DNA of 64,000 bases, from assembly GCA_025999395.1 (NCBI GenBank), contig AP024682.1, positions 367,487 through 431,486 of the forward strand. The letters run 5' to 3'. The notes beneath the pieces are model-generated. The model was not told the origin of the DNA and searched no databases. It saw only the letters and a list, made by a program, of their open reading frames with translations. Below, in pieces: positions 6 to 63,427 of this stretch (position 1 is the stretch's first letter; every line of letters begins with the position of its first letter). Position numbers and translations under genes: made by a program. Origin of the DNA: Candidatus Parcubacteria bacterium (lineage in GTDB: Bacteria; Patescibacteriota; Minisyncoccia; UBA6257; JAGOQP01).

Positions 6-125
6 GGTGAGCGCTGCAATCGCGCTCACCACAAAGAGGGAGAAGATACTCCCTCAGGAGACTTCTCTACCCTTTGTGGGTAGAGATCAGCACACATCGG
101 GTGACACAAGTCACCCGTTTTTTTT
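6..125 (+). ncRNA. GC-rich structured RNA segment: four consecutive perfect hairpins (6-30, 36-55, 65-85, 98-117) then T8; possibly 3' part of a structured ncRNA entering from upstream, or stacked terminators
   Basis: Read directly: stems GGTGAGCGC/GCGCTCACC, GAGGGAG/CTCCCTC, CTCTACCC/GGGTAGAG, CGGGTGAC/GTCACCCG; GC-rich island in AT-rich DNA; overlapping ORF 7..225 has no protein-like character. Confidence 0.3.
98..125 (+). terminator. intrinsic terminator (8-bp GC stem, ACAA loop, T8)
   Basis: CGGGTGAC-ACAA-GTCACCCG followed by eight T. Confidence 0.55.
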
Positions 126-172
126 AGATTTTGTTTTAGATATAATTCCCTTAGTAAAGATTTTTAGAAACT

Positions 173-1327
173 ATGCGTTTTCTTCAATTTCTTCGTTCTT
201 GGAAAAGAAAAGTTTCAAAAACTAGTGACACCTTTCTTGAAATTAGAATTAAAAAGGAAAGATTAGTAGAAAATCTAAACTTTTTTAAATCACTTTTTCC
301 TTACTGCCAGATAGCGGTTGTTTTAAAGAGCAATGCTTACGGTCACGGGCTAAAAGAAATAGGAACGTTTTTGGATAAAAGAGAAGAGGTTAGTTATTTG
401 GTAGTTGATAGTTTACTTGAAGCTTTAATTTTAAGAGATACTGGTGTTAAAAAGAGGCTTTTAATTTTGGGAAATGTTTTAGAAAATAATCTTTTTCTTT
501 TAAAAAAGATTAAAAAAGCAACTTTGTTAATTAACTCGCTCATCAATGCCAAACTTTTTTCTTCTAAAATTAATTTTCCTCTCTCAATTCATCTTAAAGT
601 AGATACAGGGATGAGACGGCAAGGAGTAAAGCTGGAAGAATTAGAAGAGGCAATAAGAATTCTTTCTTTGAATAAGAATCTTAAAATAGAAGGTTTGGCG
701 ACTCATTTAGCGGATGCGGATAATGTAGATGAAAAGGAAACTTTAAAACAGATTCAACTTTGGAAAGAGGCTTTAAAAATTTTTAAGTCTTTAGTCAGAG
801 AAGAGGGAATTTTTCATTTTTCAGCAACAGCAGGAACTAAATTTCTTTCTCCCTCTTTGGGAAATTTAATTCGCTTAGGAATAGGTTTTTATGGAATCGA
901 TACTACTTTAGATTCAAGGCTTAAAGTAAAGCCGGCGCTTTCTTTTTGGGCACGAGTGATAAATTTTAAAGAGATAAAAAGAGGTGAAGGAATAGGTTAT
1001 AATTTTAGCTGGAGAGCCGACGAAAACGGCTGGATAGGAATTTTGCCTTGTGGTTATTATGAGGGCCTCCCTTGGGCTTTAAGTAATAAAGGGGTTGTTT
1101 ATTTTGAAAATCAGCCTCTTAAAATAAGGGGAAGAATAAGTATGAATATGACTGCTATTGAAATAACGCCGGCTATTAATCAAATAAAGGAAAATGATTG
1201 GATAGAGGTTTACTCTGATGAAGTTGAAAAACTAAACTCTGTTCAGAAAATAGCTCAAGCTTGTAATACTCTTCCTTACGAAATTTTGGTAAGATTAGCT
1301 CCGACCATTAGAAGGGTTTTAATTTAA
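173..1327 (+). CDS. alr: alanine racemase
   Basis: PLP-lysine motif AVVLKSNAYGHGL near N-terminus; length and overall pattern typical of Alr. Confidence 0.85.
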   Translation: MRFLQFLRSWKRKVSKTSDTFLEIRIKKERLVENLNFFKSLFPYCQIAVVLKSNAYGHGLKEIGTFLDKREEVSYLVVDSLLEALILRDTGVKKRLLILGNVLENNLFLLKKIKKATLLINSLINAKLFSSKINFPLSIHLKVDTGMRRQGVKLEELEEAIRILSLNKNLKIEGLATHLADADNVDEKETLKQIQLWKEALKIFKSLVREEGIFHFSATAGTKFLSPSLGNLIRLGIGFYGIDTTLDSRLKVKPALSFWARVINFKEIKRGEGIGYNFSWRADENGWIGILPCGYYEGLPWALSNKGVVYFENQPLKIRGRISMNMTAIEITPAINQIKENDWIEVYSDEVEKLNSVQKIAQACNTLPYEILVRLAPTIRRVLI

Positions 1328-31768: not shown

Positions 31769-33682
31769 TTATTCTAGTTCTAGATAATAAACAAAGATCG
31801 ATGTTCCAACACGAGCAAACGGCTGGCTGTAGCGACTCAGCCAGCTATATTCATCTTCGGGTTTTCTTTGAAAACCTTTTGTTGGGCGGGCGGTTGCTCC
31901 CTGAAGAGAGTTGATAGAAATAGCTAACCATTTAATACCAAAGTCAGCAGGATTTCCTTTGGCTGATTGCCAACTTACCGCCCTATCTTTAAGGTAGTAA
32001 AAAATATCTCCTCCTCCAAAGTAATCAACAGCAATTTTTTCTATCCCGTTTTTTTCTACAAAGTTTTTTAAACGGAGAAGATCTTGTCCCCAGTCATAAT
32101 TTGAATCAGTAACAAAGCGATAGCCATTTTTTACCCCTCCTCCAATTTGATTAAAATAAGAAATAAAGTAGGGAGTAGCTACGACCGTTTCTATTAATGC
32201 CCATACAAGCAAAAATAGAATAATCCCTATTTTTAGATGTTTAGAAGTAATTTTTTGAATTTCTTGCCTTAAATTAATTTTCGCTTCGTTTTTCTTATCA
32301 ACCCATTTTTTTAGAGATCCTGTTGCCAAAATGTAGATAAAGGGAATAGTGGGGAGAATGTGACGAAAACCAATGTTAAGAGGGCTGTTAATGCTATAAA
32401 GCCAATAAAAGATAACCATTACTAACATTGAAAATTCAGCGAAATTCATCATTAAATATTCTCTCAAAGAATTAAGATGACGAATCTTTTTGATAAATAT
32501 TCTACCTAGTCCCAAAATTATTCCTAAGAGAGTAATTATTAAAGCCGGCAAGCTTTCTTTAAGAAGAAAAACAACCGGGAAATAATACCACCAGCCTCCA
32601 CCACTAATTTCTCCCAAAAAGTAAGCAGTATTTCCCCCAGCTGATCTTTGCATTACCATCAATATTCCTAAAAGATAATGTCCCAAAGCCCTAAGAACAG
32701 GTACTTTAGCCATCCAAATATCTAAGTTAGCCAAACATCTTAAAGAGAGAGATTTGAGTTGACAACTTTTCCATTCTTTATCGGGGCCACCGGCAAAAGA
32801 ACTTAAGATAAACTCGGTGTCGGCTTGTTGTTTGGAAGCCGGGTAATTTAAGGTAAAGATGAAATAAACTAGCCAAACAACTGCTAATCCTATCAAAAAG
32901 ATAATTACTAAAGACTTTAGATAACTAATTAAAAAAGAAAAGGAATTTTTTGATTTTAAAAGGATATTTTTTTCCTTACAAGAAATAATCCAATGAATAA
33001 TCGTCAGAAAAAGAAAGAGCGGAACCAAAAGAATAACCGAAAATTTCATCAATTGAGCAATTCCAAAAAAGATTCCGGCCAGAATAGTGTTTTTGGGGGT
33101 AGGGGAGTTTAATTGCTTGTTAAAGAAGTAAAGTCCAATAAAAAAACCCAAAGTAGCTCCTACATCTGTAGTTACATAGTGACCGTGAGCCAAAAAGTGA
33201 GGAGAAAAAGCAACTAAAAAGGCGGGAATTTGAGCCCACCATTTTCCAAAAAGCTTTCTTGACCACCAGTAAACAAAGACAACAAGAGTAATCGTAAGAA
33301 AAATAGGAAAGATTCTTGCTAGAAAAATGATCTCATCGGCTTTGTTTTCATTAAGCCAATAGATAAATTGATTACCTACTGCCCATTGCCCATTTACTTC
33401 TTTTGTCCAAATTTCTTGATTGAGAGGAAAATTTAGTTTTTTAAAAACCAAAGGAATAGCCGCTAAAACCTTTACTAAGGGTGGATGTTCGGGATTAAGC
33501 CGATAATCAAAAAATCGAAGGTAGCTGTAAGCAGCAGGAATATGGGCTAATTCATCCATAATAGCTGCTTCTTGAGAAGCGGAAAGAACCATTAAAAAAG
33601 TTGAAGATAAAATTATTAAGCTTAATAGAAGCCAAGAAAAAAAGCTCGAAATTTTGTTTTTTAAGTGATTAATTTGATCCAT
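31769..33682 (-). CDS. GT-C fold glycosyltransferase (GT39/PMT_2/ArnT-like), polytopic membrane protein
   Basis: Many TM helices; first-loop DE motif AIMDELAHIPAAYSY; large size. Confidence 0.75.
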   Translation of the reverse strand: MDQINHLKNKISSFFSWLLLSLIILSSTFLMVLSASQEAAIMDELAHIPAAYSYLRFFDYRLNPEHPPLVKVLAAIPLVFKKLNFPLNQEIWTKEVNGQWAVGNQFIYWLNENKADEIIFLARIFPIFLTITLVVFVYWWSRKLFGKWWAQIPAFLVAFSPHFLAHGHYVTTDVGATLGFFIGLYFFNKQLNSPTPKNTILAGIFFGIAQLMKFSVILLVPLFLFLTIIHWIISCKEKNILLKSKNSFSFLISYLKSLVIIFLIGLAVVWLVYFIFTLNYPASKQQADTEFILSSFAGGPDKEWKSCQLKSLSLRCLANLDIWMAKVPVLRALGHYLLGILMVMQRSAGGNTAYFLGEISGGGWWYYFPVVFLLKESLPALIITLLGIILGLGRIFIKKIRHLNSLREYLMMNFAEFSMLVMVIFYWLYSINSPLNIGFRHILPTIPFIYILATGSLKKWVDKKNEAKINLRQEIQKITSKHLKIGIILFLLVWALIETVVATPYFISYFNQIGGGVKNGYRFVTDSNYDWGQDLLRLKNFVEKNGIEKIAVDYFGGGDIFYYLKDRAVSWQSAKGNPADFGIKWLAISINSLQGATARPTKGFQRKPEDEYSWLSRYSQPFARVGTSIFVYYLELE

Positions 33683-42173: not shown

Positions 42174-43691
42174 TTAAGGTCGATGTCTTAAAACCTCTCC
42201 CCCGCCTTTAAAATTGGGATTTAACTCTCCTTCATCAACCGCTATTTGACCGTTAACAAAAACGGTTTTAATTTCAAAATCTTTATTAAAAATTACTAAA
42301 TCGGCAAAATACCCATCACTAATCATTCCCCTTTTTTCTAACTTTAAGATTTTTGCTGGGAGTCCAGAGATTTTATAAATTGCTTTTTCTATACTTAATC
42401 CTAAACTAGATGTTTTTTTCAAGAAGGCAGGAAAGCTTTTGAAAGCTCTTTCTGGTTTAAAGGTTAGCGGTAAGTCATCAAAATTAGGACTGTTAGAAGA
42501 AATTAAAGAGCGAGAAGAAAGAAGTGATTTTTCTATTTCGGAGTCATTTAAATTTCTATAAAGAATAACCGCTCTTAAGCGAGTCTCTTTCATTAAACTT
42601 AAAAGAACCTCCTTTTCTTCTTTTAAGTTTCTATTTGAAGCAAATTCTTTTAGTGTTTTACCATTAAGTTTTTCTAATCCCGGAGCGTTAAGAATAACAA
42701 CTTCTTCTAGTTTTAAAGAAGGAAGCAGCTTTTTAACTTCTTTAGCAATTTTGGAATCATCAAGTTTTTCTAAAATTAATTCTCGATCGGCATTTTTGAT
42801 GGATTCCGGAATAAAGTTATCTATGGGAACAGCGCTTAAATCAAAAGGATTAACATCAAAATAGACTTCTACTTGATTGCTTTTTTCCTCAATTAAACTT
42901 AAGGCTTGATTAAAATTTTCTTCAAATCCCAAAAACGGCCTTAAGTGACTAATAACCGTTACTATTCCTATTTCTTGAGCTAATCGAAGAATTTCCTTAA
43001 CTGAATCAATGATAAATCTTTTTTCATCTTTTAAATGGACGGTGAAAATTCCTTTTAATTGTTTAACAATGTCTAACAAAGCTCTTAATTCGTAATAAGA
43101 GATATTTTGGTAAGGGTAATAACCTAACCCCGCCGACATTCCAAAAGCTCCTTCTTTTAAAGACTGGGAAAGGATAAAACGAAAAACGCGAATTTCGTTG
43201 GCAGTTAAATCTCTGAAAGTTTGAGGGTTTTTCATAATATCTTCCCGAATTACCCGGTGTCCCACTAAAGTTGCTAGATTTGGGCCAATTTTTCCCTGTT
43301 TTTCTAAGGAATTAAGAAATTCCCCCACCCCCTTCCAATCAAGGTTGATATGATTAGTTTTTGACCAGCTCCAAAGATGATTGAGTGATCCGTAAAGATT
43401 AGGAGCTAAAGAAAATCCGCAATGACCAATAAGAATAGTAGTCACTCCTTGTTTAAGAAAATCCTTGCAAAGAGGCGAAGAAAAAAGAGTTAAGTATCTA
43501 TCAGAAGTGTTATTAAAATCAATAAAGCCCGGAGCTAAATAAGATTCGTTTCCTAAAATAACTTTATCTGCCTTATAAGAAGGAAAACTCCCAATGGCAA
43601 TAATTTTTTTATCTCTAACTAAAACATCAGCCTTGTGGGAACTGCGACCACTTCCATCTATCAAAATAACATTTTTGATTAAAGTGGTCAT
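42174..43691 (-). CDS. amidohydrolase-fold protein (D-aminoacylase-like) with degenerate metal-binding motif
   Basis: N-terminus IKNVILIDGSG...ADVLVRDKKIIAIG...APGFIDFNNTSD where family consensus is GFID-H-x-H. Confidence 0.7.
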   Translation of the reverse strand: MTTLIKNVILIDGSGRSSHKADVLVRDKKIIAIGSFPSYKADKVILGNESYLAPGFIDFNNTSDRYLTLFSSPLCKDFLKQGVTTILIGHCGFSLAPNLYGSLNHLWSWSKTNHINLDWKGVGEFLNSLEKQGKIGPNLATLVGHRVIREDIMKNPQTFRDLTANEIRVFRFILSQSLKEGAFGMSAGLGYYPYQNISYYELRALLDIVKQLKGIFTVHLKDEKRFIIDSVKEILRLAQEIGIVTVISHLRPFLGFEENFNQALSLIEEKSNQVEVYFDVNPFDLSAVPIDNFIPESIKNADRELILEKLDDSKIAKEVKKLLPSLKLEEVVILNAPGLEKLNGKTLKEFASNRNLKEEKEVLLSLMKETRLRAVILYRNLNDSEIEKSLLSSRSLISSNSPNFDDLPLTFKPERAFKSFPAFLKKTSSLGLSIEKAIYKISGLPAKILKLEKRGMISDGYFADLVIFNKDFEIKTVFVNGQIAVDEGELNPNFKGGGEVLRHRP

Positions 43692-49719: not shown

Positions 49720-50691
49720 TTAAGATATTTGATCTTCGATTATCTCAAAATTTTCTCTTAAGAAAGTTGGTTTTTGAAAAAATATCTTTAGTTCTTCTAT
49801 TTGAGCTGAAGGCGGTCCTTTCTTAAGAATTTCCAAAAAACGGCTCAAACTTATTAAATCTCCTTGAGCTACAACTCTAATGGCAGGCAAATCAACTAAA
49901 TTACAACAAAACCCCTTTATTCCTAAATTTGAGGCAGATTGAAGAGCCAGAAAGCGATAACCTACCCCTTGAACTTTTCCCTTAGCTTCAAAATTCATCT
50001 CAATAGCCCCTTTTAAATCTTCTAAAGCTAAAGCGGAATCTAGAGAAAAATAACCGATTTTTGTTCTAGTTAGTTCTTTAACATACCCTCCAGTTTTCAA
50101 AATTTCTCCTAAATCTCTGGCAAAACTTCTTACATAAAACCCAGCCGAAACTTTAAGCTCTAATTCTAGTTCAATAGTTTCTTTTAAGTAAGAAACAGAT
50201 TTAATTTTGTAGCTGATTAAAGAAACTTCTTTTTCTTTTACTTCGAAATTAATTTTCTGGCGACTTAATTTATAAGCCGGAGTCCCCTTTATTTTAACAG
50301 CAGAAAATCGAGGAGGTTTTTGAGTTCTTTTTTGAGCTAATTGATTAATAGCTACCTCAATTTCTTGACAACTGGGTAATCTTTTTAAGGAATGAAAGAT
50401 CTTTTCTCCTTCAATATCATCAGTAGAAGAGCTAACTCCTAAAACAATTTTTGCTTGGTAAGTTTTATCTAATTTTTTGAGAAAAAGAAAGAGGCTTTTA
50501 GTAAATTCTCTTCCGACTGCTGTAATTAAAAGTCCATTTGCAAAGGGATCGAGTGTTCCTCCGTGACCAATTTTTGTTTTTTTCTGAAAATTTTCTTTCA
50601 GTATTTCTTTTAAAGATAGCTTAAACTTATTTAAAAACTTGGCGGAACTAATGCCGCTTGGTTTGTTTAGAAGAAAAAACCCCTCAATCAT
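49720..50691 (-). CDS. truB: tRNA pseudouridine-55 synthase fused to C-terminal acylphosphatase-like domain
   Basis: TruB KIGHGGTLDPFANGLL catalytic Asp motif; C-terminal ~95 aa AKGKVQGVGYRF...GFCCN matches acylphosphatase signature 1. Confidence 0.8.
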   Translation of the reverse strand: MIEGFFLLNKPSGISSAKFLNKFKLSLKEILKENFQKKTKIGHGGTLDPFANGLLITAVGREFTKSLFLFLKKLDKTYQAKIVLGVSSSTDDIEGEKIFHSLKRLPSCQEIEVAINQLAQKRTQKPPRFSAVKIKGTPAYKLSRQKINFEVKEKEVSLISYKIKSVSYLKETIELELELKVSAGFYVRSFARDLGEILKTGGYVKELTRTKIGYFSLDSALALEDLKGAIEMNFEAKGKVQGVGYRFLALQSASNLGIKGFCCNLVDLPAIRVVAQGDLISLSRFLEILKKGPPSAQIEELKIFFQKPTFLRENFEIIEDQIS

Positions 50692-52416: not shown

Positions 52417-53509
52417 TTAAGGTAAACAGGTTAATTCTGCTTCAATAAAATCATCTAAATCTCCTTCTTCCAGAACTCTTTCCACTTGTGTAGTTTCGCA
52501 GCCAGTTCGATGATCCTTAATAAGTTTATAAGGATTCAGTACATAAGATCGAATTTGACTCCCCCATTCTGGTTTTACTTTGGTTTTTAATTTATCCAGC
52601 TCTTGAATTTTTTCTTTTTCCATAAGCTGGATTAATTTGGCTTCCAAAATTTTTAAGGCTTTTTCCCGATTTTGAGATTGAGAACGCTCGGCTTGAGAAG
52701 AAGCAACCAAACCCGTTGGCAAATGTACAATTCTCACTGCGGTTTCTACCTTGTTGACATTTTGCCCTCCGGGTCCAGAAGAGCGAAAAAATTCTATTTT
52801 TAAATCTTTCTCGGGAATATTTAACCTTTGAAAATTATTGTCGTAATTTAATTCCGGCAAAACTTCAACCAAAGCAAAAGAAGTGTGTCTTAATTGTTGA
52901 GCAGAAAAGGGCGAAATTCTTACTAAGCGGTGAACGCCGCTTTCTTTCTTTAAATACCCAAAAGCAAAGTTTCCTTCGATTTCAAAAGTAATATTTTTTA
53001 AAGGGATTCGGCCGGTTCTTTCTTCGTTGGATTCTTGGGAATAATCCAAAATGATTACCTTCCAATTTTTTCTTTCTGCATAGGCTTTATACATTAAAAA
53101 GAGCATATGAACCCAATCAGCGGCATCTTTTCCTCCAGCTCCAGCGTAAATAGAAACAATAGCATTATTTTTATCCCATTTGCCCGTAAAGATTTTCTTT
53201 ATCTCTAATTTTCTTATTAACCCTTCTACTCTTAAAATTTCTGACTCATCAATTTTTTCTTTTTGAGCAATAAGATGAGCTAAAGAATTTTGAGCATCAA
53301 AAAAGATTTCCAGTATTTCTTTTATTTCGCCAATTTCTTCTAAAACCAGATCAACTTTCTTTTTGTCTTTCCAGAAATCACTATCCTGAAGTAAAAATTC
53401 CTTCTCCTTAAGGAAATTTTGTTTTTTCTCTACCTCAAAGCCAGCCTCCTATTTGGCGGAGGCGGACCGTTAAATCGTTCAGTTTTTGTTGATAATCTTT
53501 TTCTAACAT
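52417..53509 (-). CDS. prfB: peptide chain release factor 2 with programmed +1 frameshift
   Basis: 0-frame MLEKDYQQKLNDLTVRLRQIGGWL then UGA; +1 frame continues EVEKKQ...; GGQ motif SSGPGGQNVNKVETAV. Confidence 0.9.
53435..53450 (-). promoter_or_regulatory. prfB autoregulatory frameshift site: internal SD AGGAGG, spacer CUGG, CUU UGA G
   Basis: Reverse complement of 53435-53450 reads AGGAGGCTGGCTTTGA. Confidence 0.85.
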
Positions 53510-53530
53510 TTTTAAAAAATTTTTACCTAG

Positions 53531-53602
53531 AGCCGGAGGGGAGATTCGAACTCCCGACCTTGGCTTTACGAAAGCCCCGCTCTACCCCTGAGCTACTCCG
53601 GC
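53531..53602 (-). tRNA. tRNA-Thr (anticodon CGU)
   Basis: Hand fold of reverse complement: acceptor GCCGGAG/CTCCGGC, U8, D arm GCTC-AGGGGTA-GAGC, anticodon loop TTCGTAA, T arm GGGAG-TTCGAAT-CTCCC. Confidence 0.85.
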
Positions 53603-53662: not shown

Positions 53663-56038
53663 TTATTCTCTTAATCTTAAAAGAATTTCTTTTTCTACAA
53701 TCTCTCTTTCGGTGCCATACTTCAGGAAGGAAATTTCCTTTATTTTTTCTGCTAATTGGTAGTCAGAAGGCGGATAAAGAGGAGTTCTTATATTAAACGG
53801 TTTAGAAGTTTGACCATTGATGAGAATTTTTACACAAGCTCTTAGGTTGTCTAGATTGATTAAATCATTTTGGCTAAATTCTGGTTCGAATTGTTTTACT
53901 AAATATTCAGCATCATCAGCTCCTACTCGAAAAGAAATAATTGAACCAACATTTCCAAAAACCGCGTCCCTGATTTTTTCTGGCAACTGTTTAATATACT
54001 GGTTAGCCACCACCAAGTTTAAGTGAAACTTTCTGGCTTCTGCCAAAATAGAAGCCACCGAATCGGTAGTAAAGTTTTGAAACTCATCAATATAAAGATT
54101 AAAATCTTTTCTTTCTTTATCCGGAACATCAATTCGAGAAAAGGCAGCCATTAAAATTTTTCCAATAATAATCATCCCTAAAAGATTAGCATTAATTTCC
54201 CCTACTCTTCCCTTGGCTAAGTTAATAAGAAAGATTTTCCCTTCATCCATAATCTTGCGGAAGTTAAAGGAAGATTTTACCTGTCCAATAATAGGACGCA
54301 TATAGTCGTTCGCGATAAAATTATTGAATTTTGAAGTAATATAAGGAGTAATATTTGCCAAGGAGGCTTCTCCTCCTACGCGGATGGCTTCTTTTTCCCA
54401 GAAATCGATGACAACGGGATTGTTAATTCTAGCTAACTTTCTTCTTCTAAAAAGATCATCCGAAAAAACTCGCGGCACCTCCATCAGAGTGGCTGGTTCA
54501 TTGACGGCATCTTCCATTAAAAGCAAAAGAGCATTTCTCATATACTGCTCAAACATCGGTCCACCAGTAGCCTTTAAATCATAGAGTTTATCAAAGATGC
54601 TAAGCATTTCATTAACAATAAAAGTCTTTTGTTCCGGTTTATCAAAATCGTATTCCAGCATATTTAATCCAACAGGTTTTTTAACATTTGCCGGATCAAA
54701 ATAAATAACATCATCTATTCTTTGAGGAGGAATTAAAGCAAGCAGTTTTTCCGCTAATTCTCCGTGAGGATCCATTACTGCTACCCCCTTTCCTTTTTGA
54801 ATATCATCCAAAGCCATATTAGTAATTAAAGCTGTCTTTCCGGTGCCGGTTTGCCCGATAATGTAAACATGACGCCTTCTATCTTCTTCGGTTATATAAA
54901 CAGGCTTTATTACTCCATTAAAGACGCTTTCACCAATTTTAGTACCATCTGAAGGAAGATTAGGAGGAGGAGCAACTTCTTTCGATTTTAGCCATTTTAC
55001 TCGCGGAGAAAGAGTGGAGGTGGTGGGAAAATGAAAAACACCAGCTAATTCTTCGGTGTTTAAAATCATTTTTTGACTTTCGTCAAATTCTCTAAAGGAA
55101 AATTGATAAGCTAATTTTTTAAGGTTCTTTACTTTGACAATTTTTATTTTGTTTTTTAAAGGAGCTTCAAATTGAGAAAAAGATCCAGCAATTGCTTCCA
55201 TAATCCTTTCGGTTTGATATTGACTTAAAGAAGAAACCACTACTCGATAATTAATTTCAAACAAAGGTTTAGAAACTTTCTTTTCTAATTCTTTAATAGA
55301 AGTTTCATCAACAATGGAAGGAGAAGATTTCTTCTTTTCCTCCTCTTCAGGATTAATAGCTTCACTAATTTCTTTTAAATCGATTAAACTTTCTGAACTA
55401 ACTTTTTTAAAACTTTCTCCTTTGCGCAATTGATTAATCATTTCAAAAATTGATTTTTTATATGATTCGGCTGCTGGTCTAATAATAAGCTGAATAGCTG
55501 CTCCTTCTCCTACCTGATTTAGTCGAGAAAGTCCGCTTAAAATAGGAGAAAAGGTATCCACTTCACTTTCTAAGTAGGTTCTCAACATTAAGGAGTAATG
55601 TTTATCTTGCTTTAAATAAAAACCAGCCGAATATCCTTGGGGTTGAAAAATATTATACTCAGGAGCCAACTCTACTTGAGAATCTTTGAAAATTCCTTCT
55701 ATTTGCCGACTAACAAAAGAAACATCTTTCTCCGGCACAGCTAAATAAAAATGAATTTCTTCTCCTATATGATGAACCGCTGCCTCAAAAACTACCCCCT
55801 CCTTTATTGCCGAAAAAACATTAAATAGCTGTTCTGAAAGATTAATTTCTTCTTTAAACTTTCCTAGTGAAGTTTCTTTATCAGTAGCTGAAGGAGAAGG
55901 AAGCCTTACCAAAAGAAGTTTTAATCCCAGAGATCTTTTTAATCTCTCTTTTTTAAAAGAAAAAATTCCATAAAGAAAAACCCCCAACGCCAAAAAAGAA
56001 AGAAAGAAAACAGTTATTACTATCAAAAGATCATTCAT
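53663..56038 (-). CDS. membrane-anchored FtsK/HerA-superfamily P-loop ATPase resembling type IV coupling proteins (TraD/VirD4/TrwB) with large novel N-terminal domain
   Basis: N-terminal TM; Walker A RRHVYIIGQTGTGKT then VMDPHGE (T4CP-like DPxGE), Walker B LYIDEFQNF, C-terminal RKFHLNLVVANQYIKQL. Confidence 0.6.
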   Translation of the reverse strand: MNDLLIVITVFFLSFLALGVFLYGIFSFKKERLKRSLGLKLLLVRLPSPSATDKETSLGKFKEEINLSEQLFNVFSAIKEGVVFEAAVHHIGEEIHFYLAVPEKDVSFVSRQIEGIFKDSQVELAPEYNIFQPQGYSAGFYLKQDKHYSLMLRTYLESEVDTFSPILSGLSRLNQVGEGAAIQLIIRPAAESYKKSIFEMINQLRKGESFKKVSSESLIDLKEISEAINPEEEEKKKSSPSIVDETSIKELEKKVSKPLFEINYRVVVSSLSQYQTERIMEAIAGSFSQFEAPLKNKIKIVKVKNLKKLAYQFSFREFDESQKMILNTEELAGVFHFPTTSTLSPRVKWLKSKEVAPPPNLPSDGTKIGESVFNGVIKPVYITEEDRRRHVYIIGQTGTGKTALITNMALDDIQKGKGVAVMDPHGELAEKLLALIPPQRIDDVIYFDPANVKKPVGLNMLEYDFDKPEQKTFIVNEMLSIFDKLYDLKATGGPMFEQYMRNALLLLMEDAVNEPATLMEVPRVFSDDLFRRRKLARINNPVVIDFWEKEAIRVGGEASLANITPYITSKFNNFIANDYMRPIIGQVKSSFNFRKIMDEGKIFLINLAKGRVGEINANLLGMIIIGKILMAAFSRIDVPDKERKDFNLYIDEFQNFTTDSVASILAEARKFHLNLVVANQYIKQLPEKIRDAVFGNVGSIISFRVGADDAEYLVKQFEPEFSQNDLINLDNLRACVKILINGQTSKPFNIRTPLYPPSDYQLAEKIKEISFLKYGTEREIVEKEILLRLRE

Positions 56039-56078: not shown

Positions 56079-56486
56079 TTAAATTAACTCTCTTCTTTTT
56101 AACTCATCAAGCACTTTTTCTACTAAAGCATCGTGATAAAGATCTAAAAGATAAGGGTCATTTTCTTTTAAAGCCAACCTAACTCCGGCACTAATCCCCT
56201 TTTCTAAAGTTATTTCAATCAATTTTTTTACCTTTTCTTTAACATCTTCTTCGGCAGAAAGAGCGTAGCTTGGAAAAACTTCTGATGAAACATTTTGAGG
56301 GATTAAGCTTGGAGATGGCTGAGTTGCTTTGCTTAAGGTAGCGGCTTCTTCTACTTTTTTCTTAACAATTGATTCTATTATTTCTCTTTCGGAGGGCTTT
56401 TCAACAGCATCGAGACGTTGAAGGTTTTCTTTGTATTCTTGAGCAATTTGTTCGTAATTGATATTATGAAGATTGTTATCAGGCAT
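56079..56486 (-). CDS. hypothetical soluble protein immediately upstream of (same strand as) the T4CP-like ATPase
   Basis: ORF with no TM and no recognised motif. Confidence 0.45.
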   Translation of the reverse strand: MPDNNLHNINYEQIAQEYKENLQRLDAVEKPSEREIIESIVKKKVEEAATLSKATQPSPSLIPQNVSSEVFPSYALSAEEDVKEKVKKLIEITLEKGISAGVRLALKENDPYLLDLYHDALVEKVLDELKRRELI

Positions 56487-56504
56487 AATAAAATTTTTAA
56501 AATT

Positions 56505-58064
56505 ATGAATGACTATAAAAAATACTTTTGGCTTGCTTTGGGAGTTATTTTTATTTTAACAGTTTTCTTCCGATTTTACAATTTGGCCACAGTTCCGCCA
56601 GGACTTTACCCAGATGAGGCAATGAATGGCAATAATGCTTTAGAGGCAATAAAAACTGGAAAATTTAAAGTTTTTTATCCAGAAAATAACGGTCGAGAAG
56701 GTCTTTTTATAAACTTTCAAGCTTTGCTCTTAAAAATTTTTCAAAAAAGAGAACCCTGGGTTTTGCGTTCTGCCAGCGCTCTTTTTGGGAGTTTAACAGT
56801 AATTGGAATCTTCTTTCTGATTGTTGAAATTTTAAAAATCAATTCTTGGGAAAAAAACAAATCTTTTTTACTTTTACCCTTTTTAAGCTCTTTTTTAGTA
56901 GCTATAAGTTTTTGGCATATTAACTTTTCCCGCATTGGTTTTCGAGCAATTATGGCGCCGGCTTTTTTGGTATGGTCCATTTATTTTTTGATAAAATCAT
57001 TTAATAGAGAAAAAGAAACTCGCGAAAGAATAATAAATCCTTTTTTGTTAGCTGGCTTAGCCGGCTTTCTTTATGGATTAGGAATGCATTCTTATATTGC
57101 TTATCGTGTTACTCCTCTTTTAATAATTTCTATTTATTTTCTTTATTGGAAATTTAATCCTGAGAGTATCAGTAAAAAAAGAATTTTTTTAAATTTTCTT
57201 ACTTTTACTATTTTTGCTTTGATAGCTTTTGCTCCCTTAGGAATTTATTTTCTAAAAAATCCTGCTGACTTTTTTGGGAGGACTGGCCAACTTTCCATTT
57301 TTTCCTCCCCTACTCCTTTAAAGGATTTGATTGAAAATACTCTTAAAACTTTAGCGATGTTTCATTTTAAAGGGGATGCTAATTGGAGACACAATTATTC
57401 TGGCAGTCCTCAACTTTTTTGGTTAACAGGATTATTCTTTGTTTTGGGAATTTTAAAGGGAATAGCTTGGGTAATTGATAAAAAAACAAAGGAAGTCACT
57501 AGAGATAATCAAAAAAATAATCTAAAATTTATCTTTCTTCTTTCGCTTATTTGGTTGATTTTAGCATTTTTGCCGGTGGTTATTTCTAATGAAGGTATTC
57601 CTCACGCTTTGCGCTCGATTTTAATGATTCCTCCAGTTTTTATTATCTCCGGAATAGGTGGTTTTTATTTTTTTGAGTTTATTTATCGAAAAACAAATAA
57701 AAAAATAACTTATTTAGTTGGAATAATTCTAATGCTGGCGATGATCCTTCAATCTTTTATCTTCTATTTTATTCTTTGGGCAAAAAATCCCAATGTCGCT
57801 GATGCCTTCAGTGTTAGATATTTAGAAATCGGTCGGCAAATAAATGAAATTTCTGAAAAAGTAAAAAAATATGTTGTTGTTAATGCGTCAGGAATAGAAG
57901 TTCGAGGAATTCCTATGCCTGCTCAAATCATAATGTTTATTACTGATTCCTTTAGCTTCGAAGATCAAGAAAAAAAGCAAATCTTTTATATTTCTCCCGA
58001 AAAAGAAAAAGAAGTTGATGAAAATAATTCCTTAATCTTTTATTTAGAGGAAAAAAGAGATTAG
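56505..58064 (+). CDS. GT-C fold glycosyltransferase (GT39/PMT_2/ArnT-like); start taken at MNDYKKYFW to avoid overlap with divergent gene (ORF track starts at TTG 56418)
   Basis: N-terminal TM then RFYNLATVPPGLYPDEAMNG first-loop DE motif; polytopic. Confidence 0.75.
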   Translation: MNDYKKYFWLALGVIFILTVFFRFYNLATVPPGLYPDEAMNGNNALEAIKTGKFKVFYPENNGREGLFINFQALLLKIFQKREPWVLRSASALFGSLTVIGIFFLIVEILKINSWEKNKSFLLLPFLSSFLVAISFWHINFSRIGFRAIMAPAFLVWSIYFLIKSFNREKETRERIINPFLLAGLAGFLYGLGMHSYIAYRVTPLLIISIYFLYWKFNPESISKKRIFLNFLTFTIFALIAFAPLGIYFLKNPADFFGRTGQLSIFSSPTPLKDLIENTLKTLAMFHFKGDANWRHNYSGSPQLFWLTGLFFVLGILKGIAWVIDKKTKEVTRDNQKNNLKFIFLLSLIWLILAFLPVVISNEGIPHALRSILMIPPVFIISGIGGFYFFEFIYRKTNKKITYLVGIILMLAMILQSFIFYFILWAKNPNVADAFSVRYLEIGRQINEISEKVKKYVVVNASGIEVRGIPMPAQIIMFITDSFSFEDQEKKQIFYISPEKEKEVDENNSLIFYLEEKRD

Positions 58065-61394: not shown

Positions 61395-62516
61395 TTAAAC
61401 TAAAATTACTCCCAATCCAAAAAATTTAATCCAAAAAGAATTTCCAAAAAAAGTAATTAAAGTAGCCAAAATAAAAGGCTCTCGCAAAAGAGTGTATTTT
61501 TCTTTTAAGAAAAAAGAACGAAAGAGGCTAAAAATGATTACCAACAAAAAGCTAAAAATCAAAAAAACAATAAACTGTGGCCAACCGCAAATCAAAGCTC
61601 CCAACAAACCAATTTCTTTATCTCCTTCTTCAAAAAACCGCGGATTGCTTTTCTCCAAAGAGTGAAGAAAAAATAACCACAAAAAAGATACCAAAAAAAC
61701 AATAAAAACTTTCAACCAAAACCTCCCCCATGAATAAAAAAGAAAATAGTTTAATTTTCCTTCCTTCCCAATTAATTTACTCAAAAAATTTTCTTTTTGA
61801 GTAAAAAGAAAGACCGGAGTTTTTAAGAAAGGCCTCGTAAAATCAAATCGACTCCAAAGATAATATTGAATAGCTGTTAAAAAGAGAGCGAATAAAATAT
61901 AAAAAACTAAAGCTCCAGTAACTAACTTTTTTAAAGCTTTTTTAAAAGAAAAAGACTCAGGTTTTTTTCTGGATTTAAAAAAGAAAAAGATTAAAAGCGC
62001 GGTTAAGAAGAAAAAGAAAATTTTTGGCAGCCACACAGAAAGCCACAAAAGATAACTAAAGATACTAAAAAAACTTCCCAAAGAAGGAACTACCAAAAAA
62101 ATACTTAAAATCGCCAAAAAAATAGAAATTAAAGCAGAAACTAAACAATAAAAACAAAAATTCTTTATTATAAAAGACTGAACTCCTACTAAAAATAAAG
62201 AAAAAAGAGCTCCCGAAACTAATAAGGCCATTAACAGCCATCCTAAAAGAGGAAAATTATTTCCTACCAAATACCAAGCTAAAGAAGTCGCTCCAACTAA
62301 AAAGTAAAAAACGATTCCTAATATCTCATTACTTACTCCTGAAATTTTCGCCCAAGAACTTTCGAGAACCGCTCGACAGTCATAATTAAGAGGACAAACA
62401 AAAGGCTTACCAGCTAACTTTTTCCTTTTTTTAAAAATATAAATAGAATCAATAGCCCCCGCCAAAGAGAGAAGGAGAAAAAGAATAAAAAGAAAAAGTC
62501 TTAGCATACTGACCAA
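61395..62516 (-). CDS. VKOR (vitamin K epoxide reductase) family membrane oxidoreductase with extra C-terminal TM region
   Basis: Loop cysteines VCPLNYDC and TM CxxC motif NFCFYCLVSAL. Confidence 0.75.
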   Translation of the reverse strand: MVSMLRLFLFILFLLLSLAGAIDSIYIFKKRKKLAGKPFVCPLNYDCRAVLESSWAKISGVSNEILGIVFYFLVGATSLAWYLVGNNFPLLGWLLMALLVSGALFSLFLVGVQSFIIKNFCFYCLVSALISIFLAILSIFLVVPSLGSFFSIFSYLLWLSVWLPKIFFFFLTALLIFFFFKSRKKPESFSFKKALKKLVTGALVFYILFALFLTAIQYYLWSRFDFTRPFLKTPVFLFTQKENFLSKLIGKEGKLNYFLFYSWGRFWLKVFIVFLVSFLWLFFLHSLEKSNPRFFEEGDKEIGLLGALICGWPQFIVFLIFSFLLVIIFSLFRSFFLKEKYTLLREPFILATLITFFGNSFWIKFFGLGVILV

Positions 62517-62531
62517 AAGTTTAATTCAAAA

Positions 62532-63353
62532 CTATTTGGAAAGAAGAGTATCGATAATTGATTTCATTTCTTGGTAAGGAATTGCTCCTGAAACTGCGTA
62601 CTTTCCTCCCTTAGGAGAAATGATAACTGAATAAGGCGTTCCCTCTCCTCCCGAGTTTAGAGCATCTTGCAGATGTTGAGCTACTTTTTGAGCATAACGA
62701 TTGCTTTCTAAACACTCCTGAAATTTATTTTTATCCAAACCAACAATTTGAGCAATTTCAGGAAGTTTAGAAGGATCAAGGTTGTTATTAGAAGGAGTAA
62801 TTTCAAAAAGCTTATCTAAATAATCCCAAAATTTTTCATTTCCTCCTAATTCGGCTGCGCACTCTGTTGCTTGTGCCTCTTTTCTTGATTTGGGATGAAT
62901 GGAATCTAAGGGAAAATGACGATAAACCCAAGCGATCTTTCCATTATAATCAGAAACTAATCTTTTTAGAGTCGGATGAAATGATTTACAAAAAGGACAT
63001 TCGGTGTCGGAAAATTCTATGATTTTAAGGCTAGCATCCGCTGGTCCATAAATATGATCTTCTGAAGAAATAGGAACAACTTTTGATGGTCCTTTATCTA
63101 TCTTAACAGCAGGATTCGATGGTGGTAAAGAATTATCTCCTTCTTGAACTTTTTTGAGGCTGCTTTGATTTGAATAAATAATAGCTCCCGCTATAACAAT
63201 ACCCGCCAAAACAATAGCGGCAGGTGTGGAAATATTTAGTTTTGATTGGTTAGATGAATTAGATGAAGTCGAATATTCTTCTTCCTCGAAGTATTCTTCT
63301 TCCCCAATTTCTTCTTCATTTTTTTTCTTTGTTTCTTCTCTGTCTTTTTTCAT
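62532..63353 (-). CDS. DsbA-like thioredoxin-fold protein, membrane-anchored
   Basis: Acidic N-terminus, one TM, then FSDTECPFCKSFHP (CxxC). Confidence 0.8.
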   Translation of the reverse strand: MKKDREETKKKNEEEIGEEEYFEEEEYSTSSNSSNQSKLNISTPAAIVLAGIVIAGAIIYSNQSSLKKVQEGDNSLPPSNPAVKIDKGPSKVVPISSEDHIYGPADASLKIIEFSDTECPFCKSFHPTLKRLVSDYNGKIAWVYRHFPLDSIHPKSRKEAQATECAAELGGNEKFWDYLDKLFEITPSNNNLDPSKLPEIAQIVGLDKNKFQECLESNRYAQKVAQHLQDALNSGGEGTPYSVIISPKGGKYAVSGAIPYQEMKSIIDTLLSK

Positions 63354-63427
63354 ATTTTAAAATATTTTTTAATTTTAAAGACTTTAAAAAGCCTACCACA
63401 AATAATAGTAAATGTGTAGGAAAAAAA

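Follow-up and report, generated by a model that had tools for sequence, protein, structure and literature searches.

DsbA-type oxidases paired with VKOR are an established feature of CPR genomes. An MdbA-like oxidoreductase family (fam000318) is enriched in these bacteria and adjoins VKOR (fam000898) in 88 of the 750 genomes that carry both families (Méheust et al. 2019, PMC6744442). The same study proposed that the CPR MdbA-like/VKOR pair folds pilins. A predicted pair of this kind is present in the window analysed here, the whole 64-kb stretch of a Candidatus Parcubacteria genome. The pairing as such is published and ordinary; the novelty of the locus is a C-terminal extension of the VKOR, hereafter EXT.

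The oxidase and VKOR genes

Two adjacent open reading frames lie on the minus strand, 62532..63353 (273 aa) and 61395..62516 (373 aa), exactly where the sequence-only reading of this DNA had placed two genes. The intergenic gap is 15 nt. The VKOR-EXT frame starts with TTG; an ATG 9 nt downstream gives the 370-aa protein called by NCBI, a hypothetical protein on a 561,860-bp contig to which the window protein is identical over 99% of its length. The same-strand run comprises DUF167, the DsbA-like gene, VKOR-EXT, Dus, a 193-aa frame in the position held by PvlArgDC at a related locus (L006, below), Sua5/YrdC and YchF. The window is AT-rich (GC about 33%). A promoter and terminator scan of its 58–64 kb segment gave chance-level results, and no pilus genes were found in the 64 kb.

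Sequence tests show that the first gene specifies an oxidase of the DsbA/MdbA type with a predicted membrane anchor, and the second a VKOR in which no catalytic hallmark is missing; judged from the protein sequences, the defining features of both families are all present in the pair (table 1). The oxidase had been read as a membrane-anchored thioredoxin-fold protein with a CPFC motif. This description holds: the hydropathy profile has a single hydrophobic segment, aa 41–59, preceded by a charged N-terminal tail with seven K/R, and the CPFC cysteines are C119 and C122. The check suggested at that stage, a search with two Pfam models, is positive for both Thioredoxin_4 (PF13462; 82.3 bits, cutoff 23.2) and DSBA (PF01323; 60.2 bits, cutoff 25.6), covering aa 98–268. 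The nearest solved structures in a PDB sequence search are 4n30 (E 7e-18), DsbA 4pwo and BdbD 3eu3. The catalytic domain follows the N-terminal anchor and is predicted to be extracytoplasmic.

The downstream protein had been assigned to the VKOR family on the motifs CPLNYDC and CFYC, whose cysteines are located at C41 and C47 and at C121 and C124. Failure of a VKOR model to match had been named as evidence against this assignment. The Pfam model (PF07884) scores 80.9 bits against a cutoff of 27.5, with aa 12–139 covering model positions 2–134 of 134; the NCBIfam VKOR equivalog scores 47.8 bits, below its strict cutoff of 120. In an alignment with the sequences of the Synechococcus VKOR crystal structures 4nv6 and 4nv2, the two Cys pairs and the Ser-Ser of the loop fall opposite their counterparts. 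AlphaFold2 (AF2) helices fall at 2–34, 63–84, 89–117 and 122–141, with lid helices at 48–52 and 55–59; this four-helix core and lid are predicted at a pLDDT of only 56–84. Cytoplasmic CxxC motifs had also been listed as a result that would overturn the reading, which survives this check as well, on homology. Homology to 4nv6/4nv2 puts both Cys pairs outside, whereas a KKRKK stretch directly after TM1 opposes a naive positive-inside placement of the loop on that side. Because KKRKK blocks this simple placement, the extracytoplasmic position of the loop rests on homology. By comparison with the Synechococcus enzyme, both VKOR Cys pairs would be extracytoplasmic.

Table 1. Features of the DsbA-like and VKOR-EXT genes. 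Nucleotide positions refer to the window; aa positions refer to the protein concerned.
Feature	Protein position	Window position	Strand	Basis or remark
DsbA/MdbA-type thiol-disulfide oxidoreductase (predicted)	273 aa	62532..63353	-	Pfam, PDB sequence matches, hydropathy
Thioredoxin/DsbA domain	aa ~98-268		-	Pfam Thioredoxin_4, DSBA
CPFC active site	C119-C122	62988-62999	-	aligned to 4n30
cis-Pro loop	T239-P240		-	aligned to TP of 4n30
Second Cys pair	C165/C214		-	aligned to Cys in 4n30
VKOR domain	aa 1-141	62094..62516	-	Pfam VKOR, alignment to 4nv6, AF2 helices
VKOR loop Cys pair	C41/C47 (CPLNYDC)		-	in register with Synechococcus VKOR
VKOR loop Ser	S53/S54		-	in register with Synechococcus VKOR
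VKOR CFYC	C121/C124, start of TM4		-	in register with Synechococcus VKOR
Hydrophobic linker, VVPSLGSFFSIFSYLLWLSVW	aa 142-162	62031..62093	-	hydropathy
EXT domain	aa 163-373	61398..62030	-	CPR-specific five-helix membrane domain, normally free-standing
EXT invariant residues	Q217-Y218, W221, Y257, W312-P313		-	family alignment
EXT always-acidic position	D299	61620-61622	-	motif RFFEEG[ED]xxLG…GWP

A CPR-specific domain fused to VKOR

The sequence-only reading had noted about 230 aa of additional transmembrane region on the VKOR, outside the minimal family. The region is there, aa 145–373, with at least five further hydrophobic helices. The statement was correct and understated: the 230 aa form a conserved domain in their own right, specific to CPR and as a rule encoded by a separate gene, often in type IV pilus operons. 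A word-index search returned one match for the full protein and 10 for the EXT profile, the likely cause being hydrophobic, low-complexity sequence. Run exhaustively over 1.84 billion representative proteins, HMMER recovered 272 relatives, of which 177 have E<=1e-10. Among the 150 of the 272 matches listed, nearly all are free-standing (median length 217 aa), and only one, P0002 (369 aa), has the fused architecture. In about 97% of lineages EXT is encoded on its own, as a protein of about 217 aa. Thirty-eight EXT loci were confirmed in reference genomes, all of them MAGs of uncultured organisms; wherever a record gives a lineage it is Patescibacteria/CPR, and six records are titled only 'bacterium'.

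No Pfam or NCBIfam family describes the domain. Searched alone, aa 145–373 give no Pfam match up to E 10 and no match to a PDB sequence; profile searches of Pfam, NCBIfam and PDB sequences found no family, and among 61 aligned members compared with Pfam and NCBIfam no family was matched consistently. The family consensus is QYxVW … GYFxFYSxGRFWL … RFFExG[ED]xxLGxLxALxVGWP … KExYTTLGxPFL. All 61 members have an acidic residue at position 299, Glu in 51 and Asp in 10, and it is their only invariant acidic position. No published description of EXT or of the VKOR-EXT fusion was found in the literature, nor any paper that links VKOR to a prepilin peptidase in such a way. The family and the fusion appear to be undescribed, and neither Pfam nor NCBIfam has a model for them.

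Fusion to VKOR occurs in two of 79 clusters at 90% identity. Such rarity might mean that the organism has separate VKOR and EXT genes and that the fusion arose in assembly or annotation, through a chimeric contig or the loss of a stop codon. This explanation is effectively refuted. P0002 shares the architecture at 50% identity over its full length, keeps all VKOR hallmarks and comes, like two further fused copies of its lineage found in a metagenome scan (L046 and L047), from independent assemblies of other samples. Synteny is conserved: downstream of P0002, at locus L006, lie Dus, PvlArgDC and Sua5, as in the window. The frame is uninterrupted, and the NCBI annotation of the contig has a single gene. 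A DsbA-like gene precedes VKOR-EXT in both fused lineages, 275 bp upstream in each of L046 and L047, and the order DsbA to VKOR-EXT is conserved. The fusion is real, rare and linked to DsbA in both lineages.

Beyond the fusions, the neighbourhoods of free-standing EXT genes contain no free-standing VKOR to a distance of 10 kb, and the only nearby DsbA is at locus L001, about 4.5 kb away, where EXT adjoins a cluster of DoxX, thioredoxin reductase, glutaredoxin and DsbA. With no VKOR near free-standing copies, the redox link rests on the two related fusion lineages and L001. A small CSHC thioredoxin occurs 5–8 kb from EXT in about nine loci and looks like shared synteny, not linkage.

Pilus operons, topology and prepilin peptidases

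Free-standing EXT genes form 77 clusters after de-duplication at 90%. Part of the family belongs to type IV pilus operons. At locus L002, EXT is flanked by a pilin/SH3 gene pair on one side and by PilB-PilC-pilin on the other, and PilM/N lie upstream; the order pilin-EXT-PilB-PilC recurs across many loci. PilB starts no more than 150 bp downstream of EXT in 12 of 67 informative clusters; in 12 of 64, a pilin with a class III signal ends upstream at a distance of 400 bp or less; and in 11 of 37, a type IV pilus gene of any kind is no farther than 3 kb away. The EXT proteins of these loci are only 33–55% identical to one another, and the window EXT is equally close to them (34–48%). The pilins next to EXT bear class III signal peptides of the canonical GFTLLE type and a conserved Cys pair, 92–104 residues apart, which makes them plausible DsbA/VKOR substrates. 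In these pilin-EXT-PilB-PilC operons, neither a canonical GxGDxK membrane protein nor a Pfam A24 match was found within ±8–10 kb. About 70–80% of free-standing EXT genes are in housekeeping contexts and not in pilus operons. Other recurrent neighbours are DUF5671, DUF167 and housekeeping genes that reflect shared synteny, including enolase, aldolase, PPDK and L25.

Positive-inside statistics for 59 free-standing EXT members give an average of 4.6 K+R in the loop after helix 1, and the end of helix 3 and the RFFEEG[ED] loop are likewise basic. This pattern favours a predicted N-out topology in which the invariant acid faces the cytoplasm, where prepilin peptidases act. In the fusion an extra membrane pass is then needed, because VKOR TM4 ends in the cytoplasm (by homology) while EXT is N-out. 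The hydrophobic linker, aa 142–162, could be this pass, a fifth VKOR-type TM; a TM5 is found in many bacterial VKORs (PMC4555120). AF2 run on the fusion makes 148–184 one helix, contrary to a linker pass, with a pLDDT of 56 at 141–150. The linker of P0002 is less hydrophobic than that of the window. The face that holds D299 depends on whether 142–162 crosses the membrane.

Several features bring EXT near the A24/GxGD prepilin peptidases. Its AlphaFold model, from the 61-sequence alignment, has a pLDDT of 93.7 and a pTM of 0.89. Two structure searches rank FlaK as the closest fold. Foldseek of EXT against the PDB gave nothing significant, presenilin making up five of 21 weak matches, and generic helical bundles reach the score of FlaK when the full-length model is used. 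The spacing of G[ED]xxL…GW in EXT is that of GDxKL…GW in PilD/GspO. Weak A24 HMM alignments covering the catalytic Asp number 41; 30 place it exactly on the EXT acidic residue, eight more place it within ±2, and the A24 GW falls on the invariant EXT W. At the level of sequence statistics the relationship is not significant. The A24 HMM scores 10 bits or less on EXT, with no significant difference from reversed sequences (p=0.097), and a Pfam A24 match is obtained for one of 61 members, weakly (E 0.0028). An hhalign comparison of EXT with 28 A24 peptidases gives a probability of 0.1%; the C-terminal halves align collinearly with a score of 15.2 against 13.9 for a reversed control.

The catalytic residues differ too. 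A24 peptidases use two Asp; EXT has the single invariant acid at 299, Glu in 51 of 61, and in the 61 members no conserved acidic residue lies upstream of it as a counterpart of the first catalytic Asp. Lacking this residue, EXT most likely binds or handles the pilin segment and is not a classical two-Asp peptidase. The genomic context of the A24 family, class III-signal pilins with PilB/PilC, is found for the EXT family and is absent from the window. EXT is accordingly described here as A24/GxGD-like in fold, motif and context, and we give a slightly better than even chance to its being a remote relative of the GxGD/A24 prepilin peptidases.

Two proposals were set aside. Filing EXT as a member of A24 was abandoned when profile–profile comparison, expected to confirm it, did not. 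A Gln-Glu catalytic dyad of Q217 and E/D299 was dropped, the two residues being on opposite membrane faces under the favoured predicted topology.

A possible coupling of disulfide formation and pilin maturation

The reading preferred here, which we hold to be somewhat probable, is that DsbA and VKOR of this locus form a working pair, with VKOR attached to a peptidase-like module that handles pilins, so that disulfide formation is coupled to pilin maturation. The following steps are proposed. (i) DsbA, with its CPFC site outside the membrane, would oxidise Cys pairs of exported proteins, as is known for the family. (ii) VKOR would then reoxidise DsbA, electrons passing from C41/C47 to C121/C124 and on to a membrane quinone, again by analogy with its family. 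(iii) EXT would have retained, in helix 4, the G[ED]xxL…GW motif and its one invariant acid; its most likely task is to bind or handle pilins at their N-terminal membrane segment. (iv) The fusion would put the disulfide-regenerating enzyme where membrane-embedded pilins mature, as the fusion and the gene order suggest. (v) The disulfide of the pilin ectodomain may form while the pilin is being processed. More tentatively, EXT may be a CPR-specific branch of the GxGD type with a single acid, either a non-canonical peptidase that matures type IV pilins or a docking pseudo-peptidase, and VKOR-EXT, with DsbA upstream, the 'Rosetta stone' of the coupling; we consider this more specific version less likely than not.

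Two other explanations of EXT have to be weighed. It could be a true, non-canonical prepilin peptidase, the PilD of these operons, acting through the invariant Glu/Asp and a second residue; VKOR-EXT would then be bifunctional. EXT fills the slot between pilin and PilB/PilC, often the place of pilD; the GFTLLE signal peptides of the neighbouring pilins need a peptidase, and no canonical A24 gene lies within ±8–10 kb. The FlaK fold match and the in-register G[ED]…GW motif agree with such a role. The chemistry and the topology do not: one invariant acid, mostly Glu, has no counterpart of the first catalytic Asp, and N-out topology sets most invariant residues near the outer face, whereas cleavage is cytoplasmic. 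Sequence-level homology to A24 is not significant, and canonical PilD is reported to be widespread in CPR (PMC6744442), with a pilD also in TM7x (PMC12206443). A full peptidase role is therefore doubtful.

Conversely, EXT could have nothing to do with pili or peptidases and be a CPR membrane protein for, e.g., lipid or quinone handling or envelope biogenesis, the VKOR fusion being incidental or EXT helping VKOR to get quinone in an organism unable to make one. The housekeeping neighbourhoods of most EXT genes fit such a role, as do the non-significant A24 statistics, the redox cluster beside the free-standing EXT of L001 and the aromatic-rich motifs QYxxW, GYFxFYSxGRFW and YTTLGxPF, which could form a lipid or quinone site. 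Against this, in 18% of lineages after de-duplication PilB begins within 150 bp of EXT on the downstream side; the rate for a random gene would be well under 1%, an estimate rather than a computed value, on the assumption that a genome of several hundred genes has a few copies of pilB. The pilus arrangement persists at 33–55% identity, FlaK is the best structural match in both searches, and no VKOR is found near any free-standing EXT. A role unconnected with pili is rather improbable in our view.

If the more specific version above is true, disulfide formation and pilin processing would be physically joined in episymbionts, within one membrane complex. Type IV pili are central to attachment and life on hosts in CPR/Patescibacteria, and their pilins carry Cys pairs. 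A domain that is found only in CPR, stands beside pilins and PilB/PilC and is fused to VKOR in two lineages offers a testable handle on pilin maturation. Should EXT be a one-acid relative of the GxGD proteases, it would also bear on the evolution of intramembrane proteolysis. CPR genomes are generally considered to be without quinone synthesis, which raises the question of the electron acceptor that VKOR uses in such organisms.

Three known systems are closest to this locus. From the A24 peptidases (FlaK 3s0x; PilD/GspO, PF01478), EXT differs in having no significant sequence or profile similarity, in the missing first catalytic Asp and in a second Asp position that is Glu in 84% of members; it has five helices where they have six to eight, and the methyltransferase domain at the N-terminus is missing. 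The MdbA–VKOR systems of Actinobacteria and CPR are alike in the anchored DsbA-fold CxxC oxidase beside a four-Cys VKOR, in a monoderm-like host and in a proposed role in folding pilins and surface proteins. They differ in that the VKOR of the window bears the 230-aa five-helix domain, a fusion unmentioned in the papers found, and the actinobacterial pili concerned are of the sortase type, not type IV. The Synechococcus VKOR-thioredoxin fusion (3kp9, 4nv2, 4nv6) and other multidomain VKORs share the core, which in the Synechococcus protein aligns with the VKOR of the window over aa 12–140, together with an extra TM and a linked partner domain. The partner in Synechococcus is a soluble, Trx-like redox protein; in the window the DsbA is separate, and the domain linked to VKOR is polytopic and without a redox motif.

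The cysteine before WP in VKOR-EXT

C310 of the fused VKOR-EXT protein lies two residues N-terminal of the WP invariant in EXT, the CPR-specific membrane domain. Cysteine occupies this position in both fused proteins, that of the window and P0002, and in just two of about 145 free-standing EXT members, where V, A or S is usual. The residue may be a fusion-specific fifth cysteine in the central short helix, or its presence in the two fused proteins may be a coincidence of shared ancestry.

Gene neighbourhoods of EXT and the DsbA-like gene

At eight loci (L027, tabulated as the example, and seven others), a DUF5671 membrane protein is encoded within the four genes that follow free-standing EXT. 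DUF167/YggU genes recur near EXT (five loci), and in the window one adjoins the DsbA-like gene. At locus L001, one free-standing EXT gene is adjoined by a divergent thiol-redox cluster encoding an ArsR-type HTH protein, glutaredoxin, a thioredoxin-reductase-like protein, DUF3179, DoxX, DUF3105, AhpC/TSA (CPFC) and DsbA (CPFC). In the window, the inverted repeat CCTACACA…TGTGGTAGG, followed by CTTTTT, could form a terminator hairpin, in which case the DsbA-like gene would start a transcription unit. A simple scan did not call this repeat because its loop exceeds 8 nt.

Feature coordinates (window positions unless a locus is named)
Feature	Position	Strand	Remark
Large polytopic protein	31769-33682	-	matches PMT/PMT_2 glycosyltransferases
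505-aa protein	42174-43691	-	flanked by MraY-like and FtsW genes
TruB pseudouridine synthase	49720-50691	-	acylphosphatase domain, aa 234-317
prfB	52417-53509	-	229-aa listed ORF, upstream open frame, short ORF1
prfB ORF1 end	near 53435-53437	-	
tRNA-Thr (CGT)	53530-53602	-	flanked by VirD4/HerA-like ATPase gene and prfB
VirD4/HerA-like ATPase	53663-56038	-	791 aa; weak P-loop matches
Large polytopic protein	56418-58064	+	GT-C-like by eye
C310 codon	61587-61589		VKOR-EXT
Inverted repeat	63388-63416	-	between DUF167 and DsbA-like gene
Free-standing EXT gene with divergent thiol-redox cluster	L001 534-6651		
DUF5671 membrane protein	L027 10710-11657		downstream of free-standing EXT

Other genes of the window

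The plus-strand polytopic protein gave no match in a Pfam search; judged by eye, it looks like a GT-C type glycosyltransferase. Within the cell-wall cluster, the sole match of the 505-aa protein is a weak one to amidohydrolase, at its C-terminus. TruB carries its acylphosphatase domain at the C-terminus, and the combination of the two in one protein is an unusual fusion.

At its N-terminus the 791-aa protein carries a hydrophobic segment, and it weakly matches both the TrwB/VirD4 coupling protein and the HerA/DUF87 P-loop; it may be a DNA-translocation ATPase. The listed release-factor ORF begins within the PCRF domain. Upstream, the same frame is open for approximately 115 codons, and the short ORF1 (MLEKDYQQKLNDLTVRLRQIGGWL, then a stop) lies in a different frame. 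As predicted from these frames, the prfB arrangement is the classic programmed +1 frameshift.
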